Sequence record: PZ452606.1
DNA from: a phage
Length of the DNA stretch: 64,000 nt
Reading direction: 5' to 3' (one strand)
The position numbers and the translations under genes were made by a program. Positions 51,720-63,687 of this stretch are shown in pieces; within the stretch, counting starts at the first letter, position 1; each line of letters begins with the position of its first letter. The notes under the pieces were generated by a model. That model ran no database searches, had not been told where the DNA came from, and saw nothing but the letters and a program-made list of their open reading frames with translations.

Positions 51720-51727
51720 TATAAATA
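51720..51727 (+). promoter_or_regulatory. T4-type late promoter for gene 34
   Basis: Exact TATAAATA 35 nt upstream of the gene 34 ATG. Confidence 0.7.
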
Positions 51728-51761: not shown

Positions 51762-54700
51762 ATGGCCGAGATTAAAAGAAAGTTCAGAGCAGAAGATGGT
51801 CTGGACGCAGGTGGTGATAAAATAATCAACGTAGCTTTAGCTGATCGTGCCGTAGGAACTGACGGTGTTAACGTTGATTACTTAATTCAAGAAAACACAG
51901 TTCAACAATACGATCCAACTCGTGGATATTTAAAAGATTTTGTAATCATTTATGATAACCGCTTTTGGGCTGCTATAAATGATATTCCAAAACCGGCAGG
52001 AGCTTTTAATAGCGGACGCTGGAGAGCATTACGTACCGATGCTAACTGGATTACGGTTTCATCTGGTTCATATCAATTAAAATCTGGTGAAGCTATTTCG
52101 GTTAACACCGCAGCTGGTAATGATATTACATTTACTTTACCATCTACCCCAATTGACGGTGATACTATCGTTCTCCAAGATATTGGAGGAAAACCTGGAG
52201 TTAACCAAGTTTTAATTGTAGCTCCAGTGCAAAGTATTGTAAACTTCAGAGGTCAACAAGTACGTTCAGTACTAATGACTCATCCAAAATCGCAGATAGT
52301 TTTAATTTTTAGTAATCGTCTGTGGCAAATGTATGTTGCCGATTATAGTAGAGAAGCTGTCGTTGTAACACCAGCAAGTCTCTATCAGGCGCAATCTAAT
52401 GATTTTATCGTACGTAGATTTACTTCTGCTGCACCAATTAATGTTAAACTTCCAAGATTTGCTAATCATGGCGATATTATTAATTTCGTTGATTTAGATA
52501 AACTGAATCCACTTTATCATACAATTGTTACTACATACGATGAAACGACTTCAGTACAAGAAGTTGGAACTCATTCCATTGAAGGCCGTACATCAATTGA
52601 CGGTTTCTTGATGTTTGATGATAATGAGAAATTGTGGAGATTGTTTGACGGGGATAGTAAAGCACGTTTACGCATTATAACGACTAATTCTAATATTCGT
52701 CCAAACGAAGAAGTCATGGTATTTGGTGCGAATAACGGAACAACTCAAACAATTGAACTTCAGCTTCCAACTAATATTTCTGTTGGTGATACTGTTAAAA
52801 TTTCCATGAATTACATGAGAAAAGGACAAACAGTTAAAATCAAAGCTGCCGGTGAAGATAAAATTGCTTCTTCGGTTCAATTGTTGCAATTCCCAAAACG
52901 CTCAGAATATCCGCCTGAAGCTGAATGGGTTACAGTCCAAGAATTAGTTTTTAACGGTGAAACTAATTATGTTCCAGTTTTGCAACTTGCTTACATAGAA
53001 GATTCTGATGGAAAATATTGGGTTGTACAGCAAAACGTTCCAACTGTAGAAAGAGTAGACTCTTTAAATGATTCCACTAGAGCAAGATTAGGCGTAATTG
53101 CTTTAGCTACACAAGCTCAAGCTAACGTCGATTTAGAAAATTCTCCACAAAAAGAATTAGCAATTACTCCAGAAACATTAGCTAACCGTACTGCTACAGA
53201 AACTCGTAGAGGTATCGCAAGAATAGCAACTACTGCTCAAGTGAATCAGAACACCACATTCTCTTTTGCTGATGATATTATCATCACTCCTAAAAAGCTG
53301 AATGAAAGAACTGCTACAGAAACTCGCAGAGGTGTTGCAGAAATTGCTACTCAGCAAGAAACAAACGCAGGAACAGATGATACTACAATCATTACTCCTA
53401 AAAAGCTTCAAGCTCGTCAAGGTTCTGAATCATTATCCGGTATTGTAACTTTTGTATCTACTGCAAGTGCTACTCCAGCTTCTAGCCGTGAATTAAATGG
53501 TACGAATGTTTATAATAAAAACACTAATAATTTAGTTGTTTCACCTAAAGCTTTGGATCAGTATAAAGCTACTCCAACGCAGCAAGGTGCAGTAATTTTA
53601 GCAGTTGAAAGTGAAGTAATTGCTGGACAAAGTCAGGAAGGATGGGCAAATGCTGTTGTAACGCCAGAAACGTTACATAAAAAGACATCAACTGATGGAA
53701 GAATTGGTTTAATTGAAATTGCTACGCAAAGTGAAGTTAATACAGGAACTGATTATACTCGTGCAGTCACTCCTAAAACTTTAAATGACCGTAGAGCAAC
53801 TGAAAGTTTAAGTGGTATAGCTGAAATTGCTACACAAGTTGAATTCGACGCAGGCGTCGACGATACTCGTATCTCTACACCATTAAAAATTAAAACCAGA
53901 TTTAATAGTACTGATCGTACTTCTGTTGTTGCTCTATCTGGATTAGTTGAATCAGGAACTCTCTGGGACCATTATACCCTTAATATTCTTGAAGCAAATG
54001 AGACACAGCGTGGTACACTTCGTGTAGCTACACAGGTCGAAGCTGCTGCAGGAACATTAGATAATGTTTTAATAACTCCTAAAAAGCTTTTAGGTACTAA
54101 ATCTACCGAAGCACAAGAAGGTGTTATTAAAGTTGCAACCCAGTCTGAAACCGTAGCTGGAACATCAGCAAATACTGCTGTATCTCCAAAAAATTTAAAA
54201 TGGATTGTGCAGAGTGAACCTACTTGGGCAGCTACTACTGCAATAAGAGGTTTTGTTAAAACTTCATCTGGTTCAATTACATTCGTTGGTAATGATACAG
54301 TCGGTTCTACCCAAGATTTAGAACTATATGAGAAAAATAGCTATGCAGTATCACCATATGAATTAAACCGTGTATTAGCAAATTATTTGCCGTTAAAAGC
54401 AAAAGCTGCTGATACAAATTTATTGGATGGTCTAGATTCATCTCAGTTCATTCGTAGGGATATTGCACAGACGGTTAATGGTTCACTAACCTTAACCCAA
54501 CAAACGAATCTGAGTGCCCCTCTTGTATCATCTAGTACTGCTACGTTTGGTGGTTCAGTTTCGGCAAATAGTACATTAACTATTTCTAATACTGGAACGG
54601 CAACTCGTCTGATTTTTGAGAAAGGACCTCAAACTGGAACTAACCCAGCACAGACGATGACTATCAGAGTTTGGGGAAATCAGTTTGGTGGTGGATCAGA

Positions 54701-55631
54701 TACAACACGTTCTACTGTATTTGAAGTTGGTGATGAAACATCTAATCACTTTTATTCTCAACGTAATAAAGCTGGTAATATTACGTTTAGCATTAATGGT
54801 ACTGTGATGCCAATAAATGTTAACGCTTCCGGTTCATTGAATGCGAATGGCGTAGCAACATTTGGTAGTTCAGTTACAGCCAATGGTGAATTCATTAGCA
54901 AGTCTGCAAATGCTTTCAGAGCAATAAACGGTGATTATGGATTCTTTATCAGGAATGATGGCGGCAGCACATATTTTATGCTCACTGCATCCGGTGATCA
55001 GACTGGCGGATTTAATGGATTACGTCCTTTAGCTATTAATAATGCATCTGGCCAAGTAACGATTGGTGAAAGCTTAATCATTGCCAAAGGTGCTACTATA
55101 AATTCAGGTGGTTTGACTGTTAACTCGAGAATTCGTTCTCAGGGTACTAAAACATCTGATTTATATACCCGTGCGCCAACATCTGATACTGTAGGATTCT
55201 GGTCAATCGATATTAACGATTCAGCCACTTATAACCAGTTCCCAGGTTATTTTAAAATGGTTGAAAAAACTAATGAAGTGACTGGACTTCCATACTTAGA
55301 ACGTGGCGAAGAAGTTAAATCTCCTGGTACACTGACACAGTTTGGTAACACACTTGATTCGCTTTACCAAGATTGGATTACTTATCCAACGACACCAGAA
55401 GCGCGTACCACTCGCTGGACACGTACATGGCAGAAAACCAAAAACTCTTGGTCAAGTTTTGTTCAGGTATTTGACGGAGGTAACCCTCCTCAGCCGTCTG
55501 ATATCGGTGCTTTACCGTCTGATAATGCTACAATGGGAAATCTTACTATTCGTGATTTCTTACGAATTGGTAATGTTCGCATTATTCCTGACCCAGCGAA
55601 TAAAACGGTTAAATTTGAATGGGTTGAATAA
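51762..55631 (+). CDS. 34: long tail fibre proximal subunit gp34
   Basis: 1289-aa ORF (T4 gp34 length); TATAAATA at 51720; internal ~40-aa repeats of the ETRRG.A.IAT type. Confidence 0.95.
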   Translation: MAEIKRKFRAEDGLDAGGDKIINVALADRAVGTDGVNVDYLIQENTVQQYDPTRGYLKDFVIIYDNRFWAAINDIPKPAGAFNSGRWRALRTDANWITVSSGSYQLKSGEAISVNTAAGNDITFTLPSTPIDGDTIVLQDIGGKPGVNQVLIVAPVQSIVNFRGQQVRSVLMTHPKSQIVLIFSNRLWQMYVADYSREAVVVTPASLYQAQSNDFIVRRFTSAAPINVKLPRFANHGDIINFVDLDKLNPLYHTIVTTYDETTSVQEVGTHSIEGRTSIDGFLMFDDNEKLWRLFDGDSKARLRIITTNSNIRPNEEVMVFGANNGTTQTIELQLPTNISVGDTVKISMNYMRKGQTVKIKAAGEDKIASSVQLLQFPKRSEYPPEAEWVTVQELVFNGETNYVPVLQLAYIEDSDGKYWVVQQNVPTVERVDSLNDSTRARLGVIALATQAQANVDLENSPQKELAITPETLANRTATETRRGIARIATTAQVNQNTTFSFADDIIITPKKLNERTATETRRGVAEIATQQETNAGTDDTTIITPKKLQARQGSESLSGIVTFVSTASATPASSRELNGTNVYNKNTNNLVVSPKALDQYKATPTQQGAVILAVESEVIAGQSQEGWANAVVTPETLHKKTSTDGRIGLIEIATQSEVNTGTDYTRAVTPKTLNDRRATESLSGIAEIATQVEFDAGVDDTRISTPLKIKTRFNSTDRTSVVALSGLVESGTLWDHYTLNILEANETQRGTLRVATQVEAAAGTLDNVLITPKKLLGTKSTEAQEGVIKVATQSETVAGTSANTAVSPKNLKWIVQSEPTWAATTAIRGFVKTSSGSITFVGNDTVGSTQDLELYEKNSYAVSPYELNRVLANYLPLKAKAADTNLLDGLDSSQFIRRDIAQTVNGSLTLTQQTNLSAPLVSSSTATFGGSVSANSTLTISNTGTATRLIFEKGPQTGTNPAQTMTIRVWGNQFGGGSDTTRSTVFEVGDETSNHFYSQRNKAGNITFSINGTVMPINVNASGSLNANGVATFGSSVTANGEFISKSANAFRAINGDYGFFIRNDGGSTYFMLTASGDQTGGFNGLRPLAINNASGQVTIGESLIIAKGATINSGGLTVNSRIRSQGTKTSDLYTRAPTSDTVGFWSIDINDSATYNQFPGYFKMVEKTNEVTGLPYLERGEEVKSPGTLTQFGNTLDSLYQDWITYPTTPEARTTRWTRTWQKTKNSWSSFVQVFDGGNPPQPSDIGALPSDNATMGNLTIRDFLRIGNVRIIPDPANKTVKFEWVE

Positions 55632-55639
55632 GAGGTATT

Positions 55640-56755
55640 ATGGAAAAATTTATGGCAGAGTTTGGACAAGGATATGTCCAAACGCCATTTTTATCGGAAA
55701 GTAATTCAGTAAGATACAAAATAAGTATAGCGGGTTCTTGCCCGCTTTCTACTGCAGGACCATATGTTAAATTTCAAGATAATCCCGTAGGAAGTCAAAC
55801 ATTTAGCGCAGGCCTTCATTTAAGAGTTTTTGACCCTTCCACCGGAGCATTAGTTGATAGTAAGTCATATGCTTTTTCGACTTCAAATGATACTACATCA
55901 GCTGCTTTTGTTAGTTTCATGAATTCTTTGACGAATAATCGAATTGTTGCTATATTAACTAGTGGAAAGGTTAATTTTCCTCCTGAAGTAGTATCTTGGT
56001 TAAGAACCGCCGGAACGTCTGCCTTTCCATCTGACTCTATATTGTCAAGATTTGACGTATCATATGCTGCTTTTTATACTTCTTCTAAAAGAGCTATCGC
56101 ATTAGAGCATGTTAAACTGAGTAATAGAAAAAGCACAGATGATTATCAAACTATTTTAGATGTTGTATTTGACAGTTTAGAAGACGTAGGAGCTACCGGG
56201 TTTCCAAGAAGAACGTATGAAAGTGTTGAGCAATTTATGTCGGCAGTCGGTGGAACTAATAACGAAATTGCGCGTCTACCAACTTCAGCTGCTATAAGTA
56301 AATTATCTGATTATAATTTAATTCCTGGAGATGTTCTTTATCTTAAAGCCCAGTTATATGCTGATGCTGATTTACTTGCTCTTGGAACTACAAATATATC
56401 TATCCGTTTTTATAATGCATCTAATGGATATATTTCCTCGACACAAGCTGAATTTACTGGGCAAGCTGGGTCATGGGAATTAAAGGAAGATTATGTAGTT
56501 GTTCCAGAAAATGCAGTAGGATTTACGATATATGCACAGAGAACTGCTCAAGCGGGACAAGGCGGTATGCGAAATTTAAGCTTTTCTGAAGTATCAAGAA
56601 ACGGCGGCATTTCAAAACCTGCTGAATTTGGCGTCAATGGTATTCGTGTTAATTATATTTGTGAATCTGCTTCACCTCCGGATATAATGGTACTTCCTAC
56701 GCAAGCATCGTCTAAAACTGGTAAAGTGTTTGGGCAAGAATTTAGAGAAGTATAA
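55640..56755 (+). CDS. 35: long tail fibre hinge protein gp35
   Basis: 371-aa ORF after gene 34; terminator hairpin and late promoter downstream. Confidence 0.9.
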   Translation: MEKFMAEFGQGYVQTPFLSESNSVRYKISIAGSCPLSTAGPYVKFQDNPVGSQTFSAGLHLRVFDPSTGALVDSKSYAFSTSNDTTSAAFVSFMNSLTNNRIVAILTSGKVNFPPEVVSWLRTAGTSAFPSDSILSRFDVSYAAFYTSSKRAIALEHVKLSNRKSTDDYQTILDVVFDSLEDVGATGFPRRTYESVEQFMSAVGGTNNEIARLPTSAAISKLSDYNLIPGDVLYLKAQLYADADLLALGTTNISIRFYNASNGYISSTQAEFTGQAGSWELKEDYVVVPENAVGFTIYAQRTAQAGQGGMRNLSFSEVSRNGGISKPAEFGVNGIRVNYICESASPPDIMVLPTQASSKTGKVFGQEFREV

Positions 56756-56760
56756 ATTGA

Positions 56761-56779
56761 GGGAGCCTTCGGGTTCCCT
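56761..56779 (+). terminator. rho-independent terminator after gene 35 (UUCG loop)
   Basis: GGGAGCC-TTCG-GGTTCCC followed by TTTTTCTTT. Confidence 0.7.
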
Positions 56780-56786
56780 TTTTCTT

Positions 56787-56794
56787 TATAAATA
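56787..56794 (+). promoter_or_regulatory. T4-type late promoter for gene 36
   Basis: Exact TATAAATA after the gene 35 terminator. Confidence 0.7.
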
Positions 56795-56817: not shown

Positions 56818-57480
56818 ATGGCTGATTTAAAAGTAGGTTCAACAACCGGAGGCTCTGTCATTTGGCATCAAGGAAATTTTCCATTGAATCCAGCCGGTGA
56901 CGATGTACTCTATAAATCATTTAAAATATATTCAGAATATAATAAACCGCAGGCAGCTGATAACGATTTCGTTTCTAAAGCTAATGGTGGTACTTACGCC
57001 GCGACTGTTCGATTTAATGGAGGAGTACATGTTCCTACTATAGGTAGTAGTCAACAGTGCGGTGTTTATCCAGGTAACGGTGATGCAGCTACCTTTGCTA
57101 TGGCAAATATTGACATCGTTTCGTGGAATGGTATTGGTTTTAAATCATCACAAGGTTCAGCAGACCGAACTGTTGTAATTAATGCACGTAATGGTGATAT
57201 TAGTACAAAAGGCGTTATGACAGCAGTAGGTCAAATAAGAAGTAATGCAGTTGCTCCTGTAGCAGCAAATGACCTTACTCGAAAAGATTATGTTGATGGA
57301 GCAATAAATACTGTTACGGCAAATGCGGATTCTAGAGTTTTCCGTAAAGGAGACACTATGACTGGAAACTTAACCGCACCAAACTTTTTCTCACAGAATC
57401 CCGCATCTCAACCTTCACATGTTCCACGATTTGACCAAATCGTAATTAAGGATTCTGTTCAAGATTTCGGCTATTATTAA
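56818..57480 (+). CDS. 36: long tail fibre distal connector gp36
   Basis: 220-aa ORF; TATAAATA at 56787; precedes gene 37. Confidence 0.9.
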   Translation: MADLKVGSTTGGSVIWHQGNFPLNPAGDDVLYKSFKIYSEYNKPQAADNDFVSKANGGTYAATVRFNGGVHVPTIGSSQQCGVYPGNGDAATFAMANIDIVSWNGIGFKSSQGSADRTVVINARNGDISTKGVMTAVGQIRSNAVAPVAANDLTRKDYVDGAINTVTANADSRVFRKGDTMTGNLTAPNFFSQNPASQPSHVPRFDQIVIKDSVQDFGYY

Positions 57481-57488
57481 GAGGACTT

Positions 57489-60400
57489 ATGGCTACTTTA
57501 AAACAAATACAATTTAAAAGAAGCAAAACCGCAGGTGCACGTCCTGCTGCTTCAGTATTAGCCGAAGGTGAATTGGCTATAAACTTAAAAGATAGAACAA
57601 TTTTTACTAAAGATGATTCAGGAAATATCATTGATCTAGGTATTGCTAAAGGCGGTCAAATTGATGGAAATGTAACTATTGATGGAACTTTACGCGTCAA
57701 TGGACCAATAAACAACTTTGGAAATTTTTCTACAAGTGGTACTATTACGGCAAGTAATATTGTTTCTGCTACAGTATTCAGATCAACATCCGGTTCATTT
57801 TATACAAGAGCAATAAATGATACTGCAAATGCCCATCTTTGGTTTGAAAATACAAATGGCTCAGAACGTGGCGTTTTATATTCAAAACCGCAGTCTGAAA
57901 ATGAAGGCGTAATTACAATGCGTGTTCGTCAAGGAACCGCTGCGGGAGCTCAAAATTCAGAATTTCATTTCATTTCTACTGATGGCGGTATCTTCCAGGC
58001 ACGTAAGTTAACTGCTTTAACTTCTATTAGTACACCAACTATTAGTGTTAATTTAATTAATCATGATTCTAAATCATTTGGACAATACGATTCACAATCT
58101 TTGGTTAACTATGTTTATCCTGGAACCGGTGAAACAAATGGTGTAAACTATCTTCGTAAAGTTCGAGCTAAATCAGGTGGAACTATTTACCATGAAATTT
58201 GTACAGCTCAGACTGGGCTAGCTGATGAAGTTTCTTGGTGGACTGGTAATATACCGTTATTTAAACTATACGGTATTCGTAACGACGGTAGAATGATTAT
58301 CCGCAATAGCTTGGCCATTGGTACTGTGACTGAAGGATACCCGTCAAGCGATTATGGAAATACCGGGGTAATGGGAGATAGGTATTTAGCTCTTGGCGAT
58401 AATGCTTCTGGACTTAAATGGGTTCGTACTGGCGTTATTGACTTAATGGCTAACGGTATTTCTGCGGCGACTATTATTAATAATGGTATTAATAGTACTA
58501 AAAAATTGATGGTTGGTTATAGTCGAGATTCTGGTTCTACTTGGGATTTCCCAAATAACAACCAAGCAATGTTTACTGCGCGTACCGATGTTGATGGTAA
58601 TAATAACGGTGATGGTCAAACTCATATCGGTTATAGCAGTAATTCTAAAATGTATCACTATTTCCGTGGTACAGGTCGTATGTCCGTTAGTATGGGCGAT
58701 GGACTTCTTGTTGAGCCTGGCATTTTAGATATTAAAACTGGTTCAAATTCATTAAATTTGCGTGCTGATGGTACTGTTGCATCTACTCAAGAAGTTAAGC
58801 TTAATAATGGGTTATTCTTTAATAGTAGTTCTTCTAACGCCGGTCTTAAATTTGGCGCTTCTTCTTCTATAAATGGAACTAAGACAATACAATGGAACGC
58901 AGGCACCCGCCCGGGTCAGAACAAAAGCTATGTGACCATGAAAGCATGGGGCAATGCATTTGAGGATAACACTAATAAAAACAGAGAAACTGTATTTGAA
59001 TTAGGCGATGGACAGGGTTGGCATTTTTATTCACAACGCGTTGCTCCTGTAGCAGGTTCTACTGTCGGTTCTGTTGAATTTGCGATGGCCGGTAGTTTAT
59101 TAACTTCTGGTTCTATTACAACAAGATCTTCCCTGAATGCTGATAATGGATTGTCTGTAAATGGACAAGCTAAATTTGGTGGAACGGCAGATGCATTAAG
59201 AATTTGGAATGCTGAATACGGTGCTATTTTCCGTCGCTCAGAAAGTAATCTTTATATTATACCGACTCCTAAAGATGCTGGAGAATCGGGCGGTATAAGT
59301 AATCTTAGACCATTGATAATAGAACTGAACACTGGCACAGTTAAAATGTCGCATGATGTTCATTTAGGAGATTCTGGATCTGGTACAGGACTTTTACAAG
59401 TAAGTAATAGTCTTAAAACTATTAAAATGATATGTCCAGTAACTATTAATGAACGCAATGCAGCGCTTACCCTGGATTCTCCTTCATCTTCTTCTGCTAA
59501 TTATTTACAGGGTTCTAAAGCTGGAACTAGATCATGGTACGTTGGTCTTGGCGGCGCTGGAAATGATTTATCTCTTTATAGCCAATCTTATGGACATGGT
59601 CTTGTTATAAGCGATAATTTCGTGTCAATCAGTAAACCTCTTAAAGTTGGAAATGCCCAACTAGGAACTGATGGTAATATTACTAGCGGTTCAGGAAACT
59701 TTGCCAACTTGAACACCACACTAAACCGTAAAGTTAATTCTGGATTTATTACTTATGGAGCAACCGCTGGATGGTATAAGTTTGCAACAGTAACAATGCC
59801 ACAATCCACTTCGACGGTCTTCTTTAAAATAGTTGGAGGTTCTGGATTTAATAGCGGATTATTCACACAATGTAATATTGCTGAAATTGTTTTACGTACT
59901 AGTAATGAAAGACCTGCTGACTTAAATGCTGCATTATACACAAGAACAATTGGAGCTGCATTTAAAGATATTGCAGTTAATAACGTCTCTGGAGATACAT
60001 ATGACATTTATGTTTCTGCTGGAACATATTGTAATCAATTAGCTTGTGAGTGGTCATGTACCGAAAATGCTACTGTTAGTGTTATTGGTATTAACTCATC
60101 TACACAATCACCTGTAGATGCTCTTCCAGATACAGCAGTTAATGGTCAAGTTGCTAATGTTCTTAATAACTTGGTTGATCGCGGTAAAGTTAAGCGTTAT
60201 GAAGCCGATTCTGAAATAGCTATTAATAGCCAAACCGGTATTCGTATCAGAAGCAATGCCGATAAAACTGGTTCTGTGGCTACAATGTTACGAAATGATG
60301 GTGGTAGTTTTTATATTCTGTTTACAGATAAAAATGCCACTGATGGCGCAGCAACTGTTAACGGCGATTGGAATAGTAAACGTCCTTTCGCAATTAACTT

Positions 60401-61169
60401 AACAACCGGCGAAGTGATGATGAATAACGGCATAGCTGTTCGCAGCGCTGCTTTATTCTATAATAGCATAAACGTCAAAGATAATGGTTCTATTAACTTT
60501 GATAAGTCCGGCGCTAACCCGAGAAACATGCGTATATTCCATGCAGGTGATGGCACTCGTGGTAATCGCATTGAAATTGCTGATGAAACAAACTATATTG
60601 CTTACTTCCAAAAATTACCTGGTGGTCAAAATCAGGTTTCATTCAATAGTGCTACACTTTCTGGATTAACACAGTGTAATCAATTTGGTGTTAACACAAC
60701 AAACGCACTTGGTGGAAACAGTATAACATTTGGTGATACTGATACTGGTATTAAGCAAAATGGCGATGGATTATTAGACATATATGCGAACAACGTGCAA
60801 GTGTTCCGTTTCCAAAATGGTGATTTGTACTCATATAAAAATATAAATGCTCCAAACGTTTATATTCGTTCTGATATTCGTTTAAAATCTAACTTCAAAC
60901 CTATCGAAAATGCACTTGATAAAGTTGAAAAACTCAATGGTGTCATTTATGATAAAGCTGAATACATCGGTGGAGAGGCAATTGAAACTGAAGCGGGTAT
61001 TGTAGCTCAAACGTTACAAGACGTTTTACCAGAAGCCGTCCGTGAAACAGAAGACAGCAAGGGTAATAAAATACTCACTGTTTCTTCTCAAGCCCAGATT
61101 GCTCTTCTGGTTGAAGCTGTGAAAACACTTTCTGCTCGTGTAAAAGAACTTGAATCTAAACTTTTGTAA
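57489..61169 (+). CDS. 37: long tail fibre distal subunit gp37 (T2/T6-type, with C-terminal intramolecular chaperone domain)
   Basis: 1226-aa ORF, longer than T4 gp37 as I recall; C-terminal ~100 aa (from SDIRLKSNF...GIVAQTLQDVLPEAV) resemble S74-peptidase-type self-cleaving chaperone domains. Confidence 0.9.
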   Translation: MATLKQIQFKRSKTAGARPAASVLAEGELAINLKDRTIFTKDDSGNIIDLGIAKGGQIDGNVTIDGTLRVNGPINNFGNFSTSGTITASNIVSATVFRSTSGSFYTRAINDTANAHLWFENTNGSERGVLYSKPQSENEGVITMRVRQGTAAGAQNSEFHFISTDGGIFQARKLTALTSISTPTISVNLINHDSKSFGQYDSQSLVNYVYPGTGETNGVNYLRKVRAKSGGTIYHEICTAQTGLADEVSWWTGNIPLFKLYGIRNDGRMIIRNSLAIGTVTEGYPSSDYGNTGVMGDRYLALGDNASGLKWVRTGVIDLMANGISAATIINNGINSTKKLMVGYSRDSGSTWDFPNNNQAMFTARTDVDGNNNGDGQTHIGYSSNSKMYHYFRGTGRMSVSMGDGLLVEPGILDIKTGSNSLNLRADGTVASTQEVKLNNGLFFNSSSSNAGLKFGASSSINGTKTIQWNAGTRPGQNKSYVTMKAWGNAFEDNTNKNRETVFELGDGQGWHFYSQRVAPVAGSTVGSVEFAMAGSLLTSGSITTRSSLNADNGLSVNGQAKFGGTADALRIWNAEYGAIFRRSESNLYIIPTPKDAGESGGISNLRPLIIELNTGTVKMSHDVHLGDSGSGTGLLQVSNSLKTIKMICPVTINERNAALTLDSPSSSSANYLQGSKAGTRSWYVGLGGAGNDLSLYSQSYGHGLVISDNFVSISKPLKVGNAQLGTDGNITSGSGNFANLNTTLNRKVNSGFITYGATAGWYKFATVTMPQSTSTVFFKIVGGSGFNSGLFTQCNIAEIVLRTSNERPADLNAALYTRTIGAAFKDIAVNNVSGDTYDIYVSAGTYCNQLACEWSCTENATVSVIGINSSTQSPVDALPDTAVNGQVANVLNNLVDRGKVKRYEADSEIAINSQTGIRIRSNADKTGSVATMLRNDGGSFYILFTDKNATDGAATVNGDWNSKRPFAINLTTGEVMMNNGIAVRSAALFYNSINVKDNGSINFDKSGANPRNMRIFHAGDGTRGNRIEIADETNYIAYFQKLPGGQNQVSFNSATLSGLTQCNQFGVNTTNALGGNSITFGDTDTGIKQNGDGLLDIYANNVQVFRFQNGDLYSYKNINAPNVYIRSDIRLKSNFKPIENALDKVEKLNGVIYDKAEYIGGEAIETEAGIVAQTLQDVLPEAVRETEDSKGNKILTVSSQAQIALLVEAVKTLSARVKELESKLL

Positions 61170-61170
61170 A

Positions 61171-61188
61171 AGAGGGCTTCGGCCCTCT
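61171..61188 (+). terminator. stem-loop between genes 37 and 38 (UUCG loop)
   Basis: AGAGGGC-TTCG-GCCCTCT, then AAGGATTTTTAATG. Confidence 0.5.
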
Positions 61189-61199
61189 AAGGATTTTTA

Positions 61200-61985
61200 A
61201 TGGCAATTGTAGGTGTTCCTGGCTGGATTGGTGAATCTGCCGTGAATGAAACTGGACAACGCTGGATGGATGCTGCGATGAGAGCAGTTCGTGTTTCAGT
61301 TCCTGGTTGGATGAGTTCAATGGCTGGGCAATCTAAAGAAGTATATTATAGCATTGGTGCTAGCAATTCTTACAATAAAGACACACTAATAAATTGGATA
61401 AAAGCCCAAGGAAGTACTCCTGTTGTTATTACAATTACAGGCAATATCGTTTCTTCATCGACAGGTCAACCATGCTTAGATTTTCCTAGCTCATTAACTA
61501 ATGCATACGTGACACTTAATATCAATTCAGGCGTGCATGTTTGGGGGCGCGGCGGGAATGGCGGAAATAACTCTGCTGGCGGAGCAGGAGGAACTGCAAT
61601 AAATAACGGAATTGGAACTAGATTACGTATTAACAACAATGGTGTTATCGCAGGCGGCGGTGGCGGCGGTGGCGGCGGGTATTATTCTCCTTTTTCACAA
61701 ATGAGATTAACCTTTGGCGGTGGTGGTGGGCGTCCGTTTGGTGCTGCCGGTGGGTCTGCTAATATGGAACAGGGTGCTACTGCTGGTACTATTTCTGCGC
61801 CAGGTAAAGGGTCTGTCAACGGTATCTATAATGGCGGGAATGGTGGTGATGCCGGAGCCGCAGGAGGTAAATGTAATATTCGCGGTCAAGGATCAGAATA
61901 TAACGGCGGTGCTGCGGGTAAAGCTGTTACTGGTAATGCTCCAACTTGGACTAAAGTTGGTACAATATACGGTTCAAGAGTATAA
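61200..61985 (+). CDS. 38: gp38 receptor-recognising adhesin (T2/T6-type, glycine-rich motifs)
   Basis: 261-aa ORF; conserved N-terminal region then Gly-rich motifs (GRGGNGGNNSAGGAGG, GGGGGGGGG, FGGGGGRPFGAAGG, NGGNGGDAGAAGG) separated by short variable segments; differs from the T4-type gp38 chaperone. Confidence 0.85.
   Translation: MAIVGVPGWIGESAVNETGQRWMDAAMRAVRVSVPGWMSSMAGQSKEVYYSIGASNSYNKDTLINWIKAQGSTPVVITITGNIVSSSTGQPCLDFPSSLTNAYVTLNINSGVHVWGRGGNGGNNSAGGAGGTAINNGIGTRLRINNNGVIAGGGGGGGGGYYSPFSQMRLTFGGGGGRPFGAAGGSANMEQGATAGTISAPGKGSVNGIYNGGNGGDAGAAGGKCNIRGQGSEYNGGAAGKAVTGNAPTWTKVGTIYGSRV
61653..61679 (+). repeat. (GGCGGCGGT)x3 codon microsatellite encoding Gly9 in gp38
   Basis: ggcggcggt ggcggcggt ggcggcggg read directly in-frame in gene 38. 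Confidence 0.9.
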
Positions 61986-62015
61986 TTTGAATAAATATCC
62001 TTAAAAGGAGGGTCT

Positions 62016-62672
62016 ATGGCAGCACCTAGAATATCATTTTCGCCCTCTGATATTCTGTTTGGTGTTCTAGATCGCTTGTTCAAAGATAACGCTACCGGGA
62101 AAGTTCTTGCTTCCCGGGTAGCTGTCGTAATTCTTTTATTTATGATGGCGATTGTTTGGTATAGGGGAGATAGTTTCTTTGAGTACTATAAGCAATCAAA
62201 GTATGAAACATACAGTGAAATTATTGAAAAGGAAAGAAATGCACGCTTTGAATCTGTCGCCCTGGAACAACTCCAGATAGTTCATATATCATCTGAGGCA
62301 GACTTTAGTGCGGTGTATTCTTTCCGCCCTAAAAACTTAAACTATTTTGTTGATATTATAGCATACGAAGGAAAATTACCTTCAACAATAAGTGAAAAAT
62401 CACTTGGAGGATATCCTGTTGATAAAACTATGGATGAATATACAGTTCATTTAAATGGACGTCATTATTATTCCAACTCAAAATTTGCTTTTTTACCAAC
62501 TAAAAAGCCTACTCCCGAAATAAACTACATGTACAGTTGTCCATATTTTAATTTGGATAATATCTATGCTGGAACGATAACCATGTACTGGTATAGAAAT
62601 GATCATATAAGTAATGACCGCCTTGAATCAATATGTGCTCAGGCGGCCAGAATATTAGGAAGGGCTAAATAA
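62016..62672 (+). CDS. t: holin T
   Basis: 218-aa ORF; single N-terminal TM segment (VAVVILLFMMAIVWY) with large periplasmic domain; matches T4 holin in length and sequence as recalled. Confidence 0.93.
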   Translation: MAAPRISFSPSDILFGVLDRLFKDNATGKVLASRVAVVILLFMMAIVWYRGDSFFEYYKQSKYETYSEIIEKERNARFESVALEQLQIVHISSEADFSAVYSFRPKNLNYFVDIIAYEGKLPSTISEKSLGGYPVDKTMDEYTVHLNGRHYYSNSKFAFLPTKKPTPEINYMYSCPYFNLDNIYAGTITMYWYRNDHISNDRLESICAQAARILGRAK

Positions 62673-63468: not shown

Positions 63469-63687
63469 TTATGCTTTGCGACTAAATTGTTCATAGTGCT
63501 GAATTACCTCTCTCAAACATTTGCATGTGAATGAAAACTTTTTAGCTACACCACATTCAAATATGTGTTCTCTTAAATCACATGTATCGGTATATCCCAT
63601 CTCAACAATAAAATGCCGTATTAGATTTTTATCTTTATCATTGAGAGAATTAAAATAATCAGATTTTGAATTAATTTCCCTGGCCAA
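63469..63687 (-). CDS. hypothetical Cys-rich small protein
   Basis: 72-aa ORF with C..C...C.C pattern. Confidence 0.5.
   Translation of the reverse strand: MAREINSKSDYFNSLNDKDKNLIRHFIVEMGYTDTCDLREHIFECGVAKKFSFTCKCLREVIQHYEQFSRKA

Follow-up and report, generated by a model that had tools for sequence, protein, structure and literature searches.

A T2/T6-type distal tail-fibre tip module with a predicted Tsx-type gp38 adhesin and an Sf22-like gp37 in a T-even phage sequence

We investigated the distal tail-fibre genes of the phage sequence record PZ452606.1, within a stretch of 64,000 nucleotides that was analysed as a whole (the window). Genes 37 and 38 occupy two plus-strand open reading frames (ORFs), found exactly where an initial annotation of the sequence had placed them, and it is very likely that together they form a distal tail-fibre tip of the T2/T6 (S16-like) kind, in a phage of the genus Tequatrovirus; the sequence holds nothing that contradicts such a reading. 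In this module gp37 probably sheds its folding helper by self-cleavage, and a separate protein, gp38, is assigned as the receptor-binding tip. Judged by sequence, the module combines an attachment interface of the T2 subtype, receptor loops of the T6 (Tsx) type and a fibre of the Sf22 type.

57489-61169 (+ strand): gene 37, long tail fibre distal subunit precursor, 1226 amino acids (phrog_1699, E = 0)
61200-61985 (+ strand): gene 38, monomeric tail-fibre tip adhesin, 261 amino acids (Pfam, PDB match and predicted fold)

We identified gp38 as an adhesin of the S16/T2/T6 family by its sequence, fold and gene position, in agreement with the initial annotation. The protein matches PF05268 (GP38) over residues 47-261 (E = 2e-71, profile positions 1-218 of 218), PF21721 (Gp38_N) over residues 1-42 (E = 8e-18) and phrog_2056, "tail fiber protein; host specificity" (E = 2e-104), and its residues 8-259 align with the S16 adhesin from the solved complex of gp37 and gp38 (6f45_D, E = 5e-49). 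Both Pfam matches, and that of the gp37 C-terminus to Peptidase_S74 described below, lie above the curated cut-offs, and their E values (3e-15 for the last) indicate that these features of gp37 and gp38 are not due to chance.

61200-61325 (+ strand): gp38 N-terminal attachment domain, residues 1-42, with Trp9, Trp22 and Trp37 (PF21721); T2/Sf22 subtype, not that of T6

The three tryptophans of the attachment domain align with the three of S16 gp38 that plug into the gp37 tip; across 13 reference adhesins Trp37 is invariant, and Trp9 and Trp22 are at least 90% conserved. An AlphaFold2 model of gp38, built on 39 homologues (mean pLDDT 91.3), places helices at residues 10-18, 23-29 and 38-41, and its predicted fold comprises the attachment domain, beta-helix and polyglycine sandwich of the family. 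Searching the PDB with this model in Foldseek recovered only the folds of S16 gp38 (6f45_D, E = 1e-22, TM 0.80/0.84) and of the PP01 gp38 receptor-binding domain (9v85_C, E = 9e-20, TM 0.74/0.87), the next match having E > 1. The likeness to S16 (6F45) and PP01 (9V85) covers the gp38 fold, the three docking tryptophans, the polyglycine sandwich and the cleavage-site motif of the gp37 chaperone, whereas sequence identity is only ~43%, and S16 and PP01 target OmpC.

Glycine accounts for 9% of gp38 residues 1-108 and 33% of residues 109-261, with invariant glycine columns at G116-G121, G153-G157, G173-G177, G213-G216 and G237-G240 and variable stretches between them. Profiles and composition therefore bear out the earlier description of a conserved N-terminal attachment region followed by alternating glycine-rich and variable segments. 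We additionally noted a G+C content of 0.49 at 61500-62083, against ~0.37 in the surrounding sequence, with a GC skew of +0.29, which arises because glycine codons run together in the 3' half of gene 38; three additional ORFs found here, at 61707-61889 (- strand), 61714-62004 (+ strand) and 61886-62083 (- strand), are likely by-products of this glycine-codon composition.

For gp37, the C-terminal segment of about 100 residues remarked on in the initial annotation (SDIRLKSNFKPIENALDKVEKLNGVIYDK...EAGIVAQTLQDVLPEAV) is present, starting at residue 1128 and running for 99 residues to the end of the protein.

60855-60869 (+ strand): NVYIR, residues 1123-1127, predicted last strand of mature gp37 (motif conservation)
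60870-61166 (+ strand): Peptidase_S74 intramolecular chaperone domain, residues 1128-1226, 99 amino acids (PF13884)
60870-60872 (+ strand): putative catalytic Ser1128
60885-60887 (+ strand): putative catalytic Lys1133

The resemblance to Ser-Lys autoproteolytic chaperones that had been suggested for this segment was recovered in two ways, as a Pfam match to Peptidase_S74 and as an alignment of its Ser-x4-Lys with the published S16 site, and we assign the segment, on its profile match and motif, as a Peptidase_S74 intramolecular chaperone domain. PF13884 matches residues 1128-1185 from end to end of the profile (positions 1-58 of 58), with 56.5 bits where the cut-off is 22 (E = 3.4e-15). The domain opens with SDIRLK, in which Ser1128 is the first residue and Lys1133 lies five on (S-x4-K), and it sits at the extreme C-terminus, in the last 99 of 1226 residues, with the trimerisation domains PF21446 and PF20744 upstream.

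In an alignment of the C-terminal ~190 residues of ten gp37 proteins, all from phages whose gp38 is of the adhesin type (Sf22, NR1, FriedrichMiescher, TadeuszReichstein, T6, T2, AugustSocin, PaulHMueller, WilhelmHis and the window), V-Y-I-R-S-D-x-R-x-K was invariant, although the T6-subtype proteins are only 37% identical overall. The chaperone domain of the window is identical to that of T2 at 98 of 99 residues, and differs from those of the NR1/Bas39 group at 2 of 99. When a profile of these ten C-termini was searched against the PDB, it matched S16 gp37 (6f45_A, E = 5.5e-31), human MYRF in its self-cleaving domain (7dc3, E = 8e-9) and a further phage fibre (8jov, E = 2e-6), with the SD-R-K motif in register in all three (AD-R-K in the MYRF chain). 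The profile was used in place of a single-sequence search of the gp37 C-terminus, which returned mostly spurious matches to influenza haemagglutinin coiled coils above E 0.01.

S16 gp37 is reported to cleave itself at DLNVS^SDRRIKK once it has trimerised, losing the final 113 residues and thereby baring the gp38 docking face (PMC7917993). The fPS phages, which are Tequatrovirus members, have DVYIR^SDGRLKI at the place of the S16 cleavage site (PMC7917993), and the NVYIR^SD site of the window aligns with that of S16, although the S16 chaperone domain is longer, at 113 residues, and is cut after Ser rather than Arg. T2 and T6 are cited as T-even phages with a proteolytically processed gp37 (PMC3157838), and T6 gp37 shares with that of the window the SDxRLK motif and, in principle, the cleavable C-terminus. 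Because of the near-identity of the domain to its T2 counterpart (98/99 residues), and because of the S16 and fPS literature and the shared motif, we predict cleavage between R1127 and S1128, which would leave a mature gp37 of 1127 residues with NVYIR as its terminal strand.

Assembly of the tip probably proceeds as follows. gp37 would be made as a precursor of 1226 residues, and its C-terminal 99-residue chaperone would drive trimerisation of the beta-helical fibre, as the family suggests, before removing itself by Ser1128/Lys1133-dependent autoproteolysis at the predicted site, as the motif, S16 and T2 suggest. Cleavage would expose the NVYIR tip as a docking face for gp38, one copy of which, by analogy with S16, would dock there via W9, W22 and W37, which lie in the helical domain at its N-terminus. 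Towards the other end of gp38, the polyglycine sandwich would then present the variable loops that bind a host outer-membrane protein, in this case the predicted receptor, the nucleoside channel Tsx. We infer that gp38 would be found in virions and bind an outer-membrane receptor, and that host range at the step of reversible adsorption would be set by gene 38, not by the gp37 tip as in T4.

To assign a receptor, gp38 was aligned with 12 reference adhesins, for 11 of which the receptor is known by experiment. These included the Tsx adhesins of T6, WilhelmHis/Bas35, FriedrichMiescher/Bas39 and TadeuszReichstein/Bas43, the FadL adhesin of T2, the OmpF adhesins of AugustSocin/Bas38 and AlbertHofmann/Bas47, and the OmpA adhesins of PaulHMueller/Bas45, M1 and FL18 (PMC8594841 supplement; PMC3157838; PMC12032242). 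The boundaries of the variable segments are our own delineation from this alignment.

61566-61652 (+ strand): gp38 variable segment 1, residues 123-151 (alignment)
61680-61715 (+ strand): gp38 variable segment 2, YYSPFSQMRLTF, residues 161-172, identical to WilhelmHis (Tsx) and 11/12 to T6
61752-61832 (+ strand): gp38 variable segment 3, residues 185-211, identical to Bas39 (Tsx) and 78% to T6
61869-61904 (+ strand): gp38 variable segment 4, KCNIRGQGSEYN, residues 224-235, identical to Bas39 and 83-92% to T6/WilhelmHis

This comparison of the variable segments with adhesins of known specificity, which the initial annotation had proposed, gave a clear T6/Tsx type. Segment 2 is 92-100% identical to those of T6, WilhelmHis and Bas39 (all Tsx), and 0-17% identical to those of the FadL, OmpF and OmpA types; the corresponding values are 78-100% and 22-58% for segment 3, and 83-100% and 0-58% for segment 4. 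The gp38 of T6 likewise has 261 residues and the same loop set, with 78% identity over residues 109-261. In contrast, segments 2-4 of T2 are unrelated (0-26% identical) and its receptor is different, and those of Sf22 are likewise unrelated (0-23%), indicating that the Sf22 receptor is probably also different.

The nearest relatives point to the same receptor. The gp38 of the window is 100% identical to that of phage NR1 (LR990704; CAD7712075.1), an exact copy is present in a collection of 15 billion proteins, and it is 98.9% identical to those of Bas39 (MZ501066), JK38 and slur02/04/11/13. The primary receptor of Bas39 is Tsx (PMC8594841 supplement), and JK38 has been assigned to Tsx/Kdo by RB-TnSeq (bioRxiv 10.64898/2026.04.02.716166). 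Three residues, S86, Q90 and R169, distinguish the window from Bas39; the sole difference within a loop is R169 in place of K, in segment 2, and the Tsx phages T6 and WilhelmHis also have R169. The part of gp38 from HVS2 onwards is sufficient for a switch of porin (bioRxiv 10.64898/2026.04.02.716166).

We therefore predict from the loops, with good confidence, that the receptor of gp38 is Tsx. Several observations limit this assignment, and they lend some credit to an unlikely alternative, in which the architecture is the same and gp38 recognises either a different receptor or, besides Tsx, a further one such as OmpA or lipopolysaccharide, as in phage PST. Tsx-type and "type 1" OmpA adhesins are closely related (PMC12032242), and the "type 1" adhesin of PaulHMueller (OmpA) is 86% identical to the gp38 of the window overall, more than that of TadeuszReichstein (Tsx), at 84%. 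Whole-protein identity is misleading as a guide to the receptor, since the high value for PaulHMueller reflects a shared N-terminal domain; identities were therefore taken per segment, and it is on the loop segments that the Tsx call rests. Point mutations are also known to switch or broaden receptor use: in RB68 the single gp38 loop substitution Q206L switches OmpF to OmpW (bioRxiv 10.64898/2026.04.02.716166), and PST, which is a few residues away from T6, also uses OmpA (PMC3157838). However, the four variable segments of the window are identical or nearly so to those of Tsx-dependent phages, segment 2 reaches no more than 17% identity with the OmpA type, and the residues of PST that are tied to its additional recognition of OmpA (R167, I168 and I208) are absent, the window having the T6-like Q167, M168 and G208. 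Our confidence in Tsx is held at this level, and no higher, because single loop substitutions can retarget adhesins of the gp38 type.

The attachment interface belongs to another subtype than the loops. Residues 1-108 of gp38 are 77-100% identical to proteins of the T2/Sf22 subtype (77% for T2 itself) and 45-48% identical to those of the T6 subtype, and the tip and chaperone region of gp37 is similarly 85-99% identical to the T2/Sf22 subtype and 37-38% identical to that of T6. Thus, T6, with its attachment domain (45%) and its gp37 tip and chaperone (37%), belongs to the other lock-and-key subtype, whereas the NR1/Bas39 group shares with the window both a T2-subtype attachment domain and T6-type loops. 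Trojet et al. described the subtype of the gp38 N-terminus as co-varying with that of the gp37 C-terminus, in the manner of a lock and key (PMC3157838), and the matched subtypes in the window fit this co-variation.

At the DNA level, sliding 150-nucleotide comparison gives mostly 93-100% identity between the window and Sf22 from the beginning of gene 37 as far as ~61388. Identity to Sf22 is 98% at 61239-61388, and then 78, 64, 50 and 71% over the remainder of gene 38, whereas that to NR1 stays at 95-99% throughout the gene, which pinpoints a crossover to the following interval, just upstream of the first glycine-rich motif.

61389-61538 (+ strand): recombination breakpoint zone in gene 38, gp38 residues 64-113; the sequence tracks Sf22 upstream and NR1/FriedrichMiescher downstream

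The locus is therefore a natural mosaic, in which an Sf22-like gene 37 and 5' part of gene 38 are joined to a receptor-binding half of the NR1/Bas39 type. Shigella phage Sf22 (MF158045) has a gp37 that is 98% identical in amino acids to that of the window (1203/1229), and it agrees with the window in gene order and in the initial ~60 residues of gp38. Among the phage records of the collection, none contains the whole combination of 57489-61985 at high identity, the best coverage being 90%, for Sf22, and the exact gp37 sequence was absent from the collection of 15 billion proteins.

The shaft of gp37 also shows sharp mosaicism. Over 57639-59138 the window is 93-100% identical to Sf22 and mostly 41-65% identical to NR1 and FriedrichMiescher/Bas39, whose gp37 proteins are also longer (1260-1266 residues). 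We observed one island within this part of gene 37, at 58389-58688, that is 84-95% identical to NR1, and an NR1-like island in an Sf22-like stretch indicates that the fibre shaft is itself a fine-grained mosaic. One might suppose that natural recombination recently placed a Tsx-type half of gene 38 on an Sf22 fibre, with the Sf22-type shaft (residues ~50-560) as a second host-range determinant, for example through a glycan contact; gene 38 alone would then be insufficient to set host range, and the combination would be unlike either parent lineage. Sharp mosaicism often marks host-driven selection, and k-mers that predict porin use in Straboviridae occur in Gp37 as well as in Gp38 (bioRxiv 10.64898/2026.04.02.716166). 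However, those gp37 k-mers are attributed to the OmpC-binding tips of T4-type phages, and swaps of gp38 alone fully switch the porin in related phages (bioRxiv 10.64898/2026.04.02.716166). Moreover, profile searches of Pfam, PHROG and the PDB found no binding domain in the shaft, only fibre and trimerisation families. We consider such a second determinant somewhat less probable even than a receptor other than Tsx.

Finally, it is scarcely credible that gp38 serves, as in T4, as an assembly chaperone and is missing from virions, with the gp37 C-terminus binding the receptor, since, labels of GenBank homologues aside, gp38 lacks sequence similarity to T4 gp38 (NP_049864; BLASTP best 11 bits, E = 19), strongly resembles, in both sequence and fold, virion-bound adhesins solved with gp37, and is preceded by a gp37 whose C-terminus is a chaperone/protease domain and not a T4-like needle tip. 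The initial annotation had named an alignment of gp38 to the T4-type chaperone as the result that would overturn its reading, and the BLASTP comparison gave none. The labels in question, "distal long tail fiber assembly catalyst" or "tail assembly protein", are attached to many deposited adhesin homologues from related phages, and were carried over from the annotation of T4 gp38, to which these proteins are unrelated in sequence. T4 shares with the window the positions and names of the genes and a homologous proximal fibre (gp34-36 and the gp37 N-terminus), whereas its gp38 is an unrelated chaperone of 183 residues and its gp37, of 1026 residues, itself binds the receptor.

The tip system as such is thoroughly characterised and a matter of textbooks, the adhesin tip being the commoner of the two T-even tip types, and hundreds of genomes already carry that annotation. 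Structural and genetic work on T2, T6, K3, S16, PP01 and the BASEL phages has covered the gp37 chaperone that cleaves itself, the monomeric gp38 cap with its polyglycine fold and the mapping of loops to receptors, and the module opens no new biological question. The only novelty is the mosaic, which adds one more natural case of adhesin swapping by recombination inside gene 38, of a kind already documented for the locus. A confident prediction of Tsx from sequence alone is nonetheless useful in the design of phage cocktails, and in anticipating resistance through loss of tsx.

At 1226 residues, gp37 is longer than its T4 counterpart, as had been noted. Its length is unremarkable given the spread of 994-1341 residues in T6 (994), T2 (1341), Sf22 (1229) and NR1 (1266). 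We identified two trimerisation domains upstream of the chaperone.

58971-59321 (+ strand): Gp34_trimer-like trimerisation domain, gp37 residues 495-611 (PF21446, E = 7e-11)
59466-59684 (+ strand): gp37_trimer domain, gp37 residues 660-732 (PF20744, E = 2e-10; PDB 4a0t/4a0u, E = 4e-6)

Residues 426-624 of gp37 match structures of T4 gp34 in the PDB (4uxe, 5nxf and 9x3r), and this segment of ~200 residues (58764-59360) is homologous to the C-terminal trimerisation region of the gp34 of the window (residues ~905-1105). A repeat shared in this way by gp34 and gp37, between the proximal and the distal half-fibres, could serve as a substrate for recombination.

The tip module lies in a conserved neighbourhood.

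51762-55631 (+ strand): gene 34, 1289 amino acids
55640-56755 (+ strand): gene 35
56818-57480 (+ strand): gene 36, encoding gp36, the distal hinge connector that carries gp37, 220 amino acids (PF03903, E = 3e-37; phrog_1425)
62016-62672 (+ strand): holin gene t, the downstream end of the module, which confirms synteny (PF11031, E = 2e-117)

In comparison with the T4 map, the order 34-35-36-37-38-t is the canonical one of Tequatrovirus, and is followed by homologues of asiA and arn on the minus strand; genes 37 and 38 are separated by 30 nucleotides. Over a 25-kb part of the window outside the module, identity to many Tequatrovirus genomes (slur02/04, KarlGJung and T6 among them) is 96-97%, indicating that the window belongs to the genome of a T-even coliphage.

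We additionally searched the window for expression signals.

51720-51727: T4-type late promoter box TATAAATA, before gene 34 (pattern search)
56787-56794 (+ strand): T4-type late promoter box TATAAATA, 24 nucleotides upstream of gene 36 (pattern search)
61171-61188 (+ strand): hairpin AGAGGGC-UUCG-GCCCUCU, 7 base pairs, -13.4 kcal/mol, in the gap between genes 37 and 38 (folding; z-score only -1.7)

The box occurs 18 times in the window, against 9.3 expected by chance. Between gene 35 and the end of gene t the pattern search found no box other than that at 56787, including before genes 38 and t, which suggests that genes 36-37-38-t form a late transcript from the gene 36 promoter, on which adhesin and holin would both depend. 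A scan for sigma-70 promoters gave 24, with no excess over the 26.5 expected from shuffled sequences, and is irrelevant for late genes. Directly after the hairpin at 61171-61188 comes the gene 38 ribosome-binding site, AAGGA, and the records of NR1 and K3 annotate a terminator or stem-loop at this place. We observed a second G+C-rich hairpin with a TTCG tetraloop after gene 35, at 56759-56780, just upstream of the late promoter of gene 36. Both hairpins may be elements that stabilise or attenuate the RNA rather than full terminators.

Two minor observations concern genes outside the tip. The hinge protein gp35 (55640-56755) matches Pfam family ILEI (PF15711, interleukin-like EMT inducer) over residues 58-126 (36 bits against a cut-off of 27, E = 1e-8), a family name that one would not expect in a hinge protein of a phage. 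Between the homologues of arn and arn.2 we identified an ORF of 72 amino acids with a TTG start, at 63469-63687 (- strand). At the equivalent place NR1 annotates a gene of 219 nucleotides, whereas T4, Bas39 and others have only arn.1, of 132 nucleotides, a discrepancy that is probably due to a difference in annotation or start codon.

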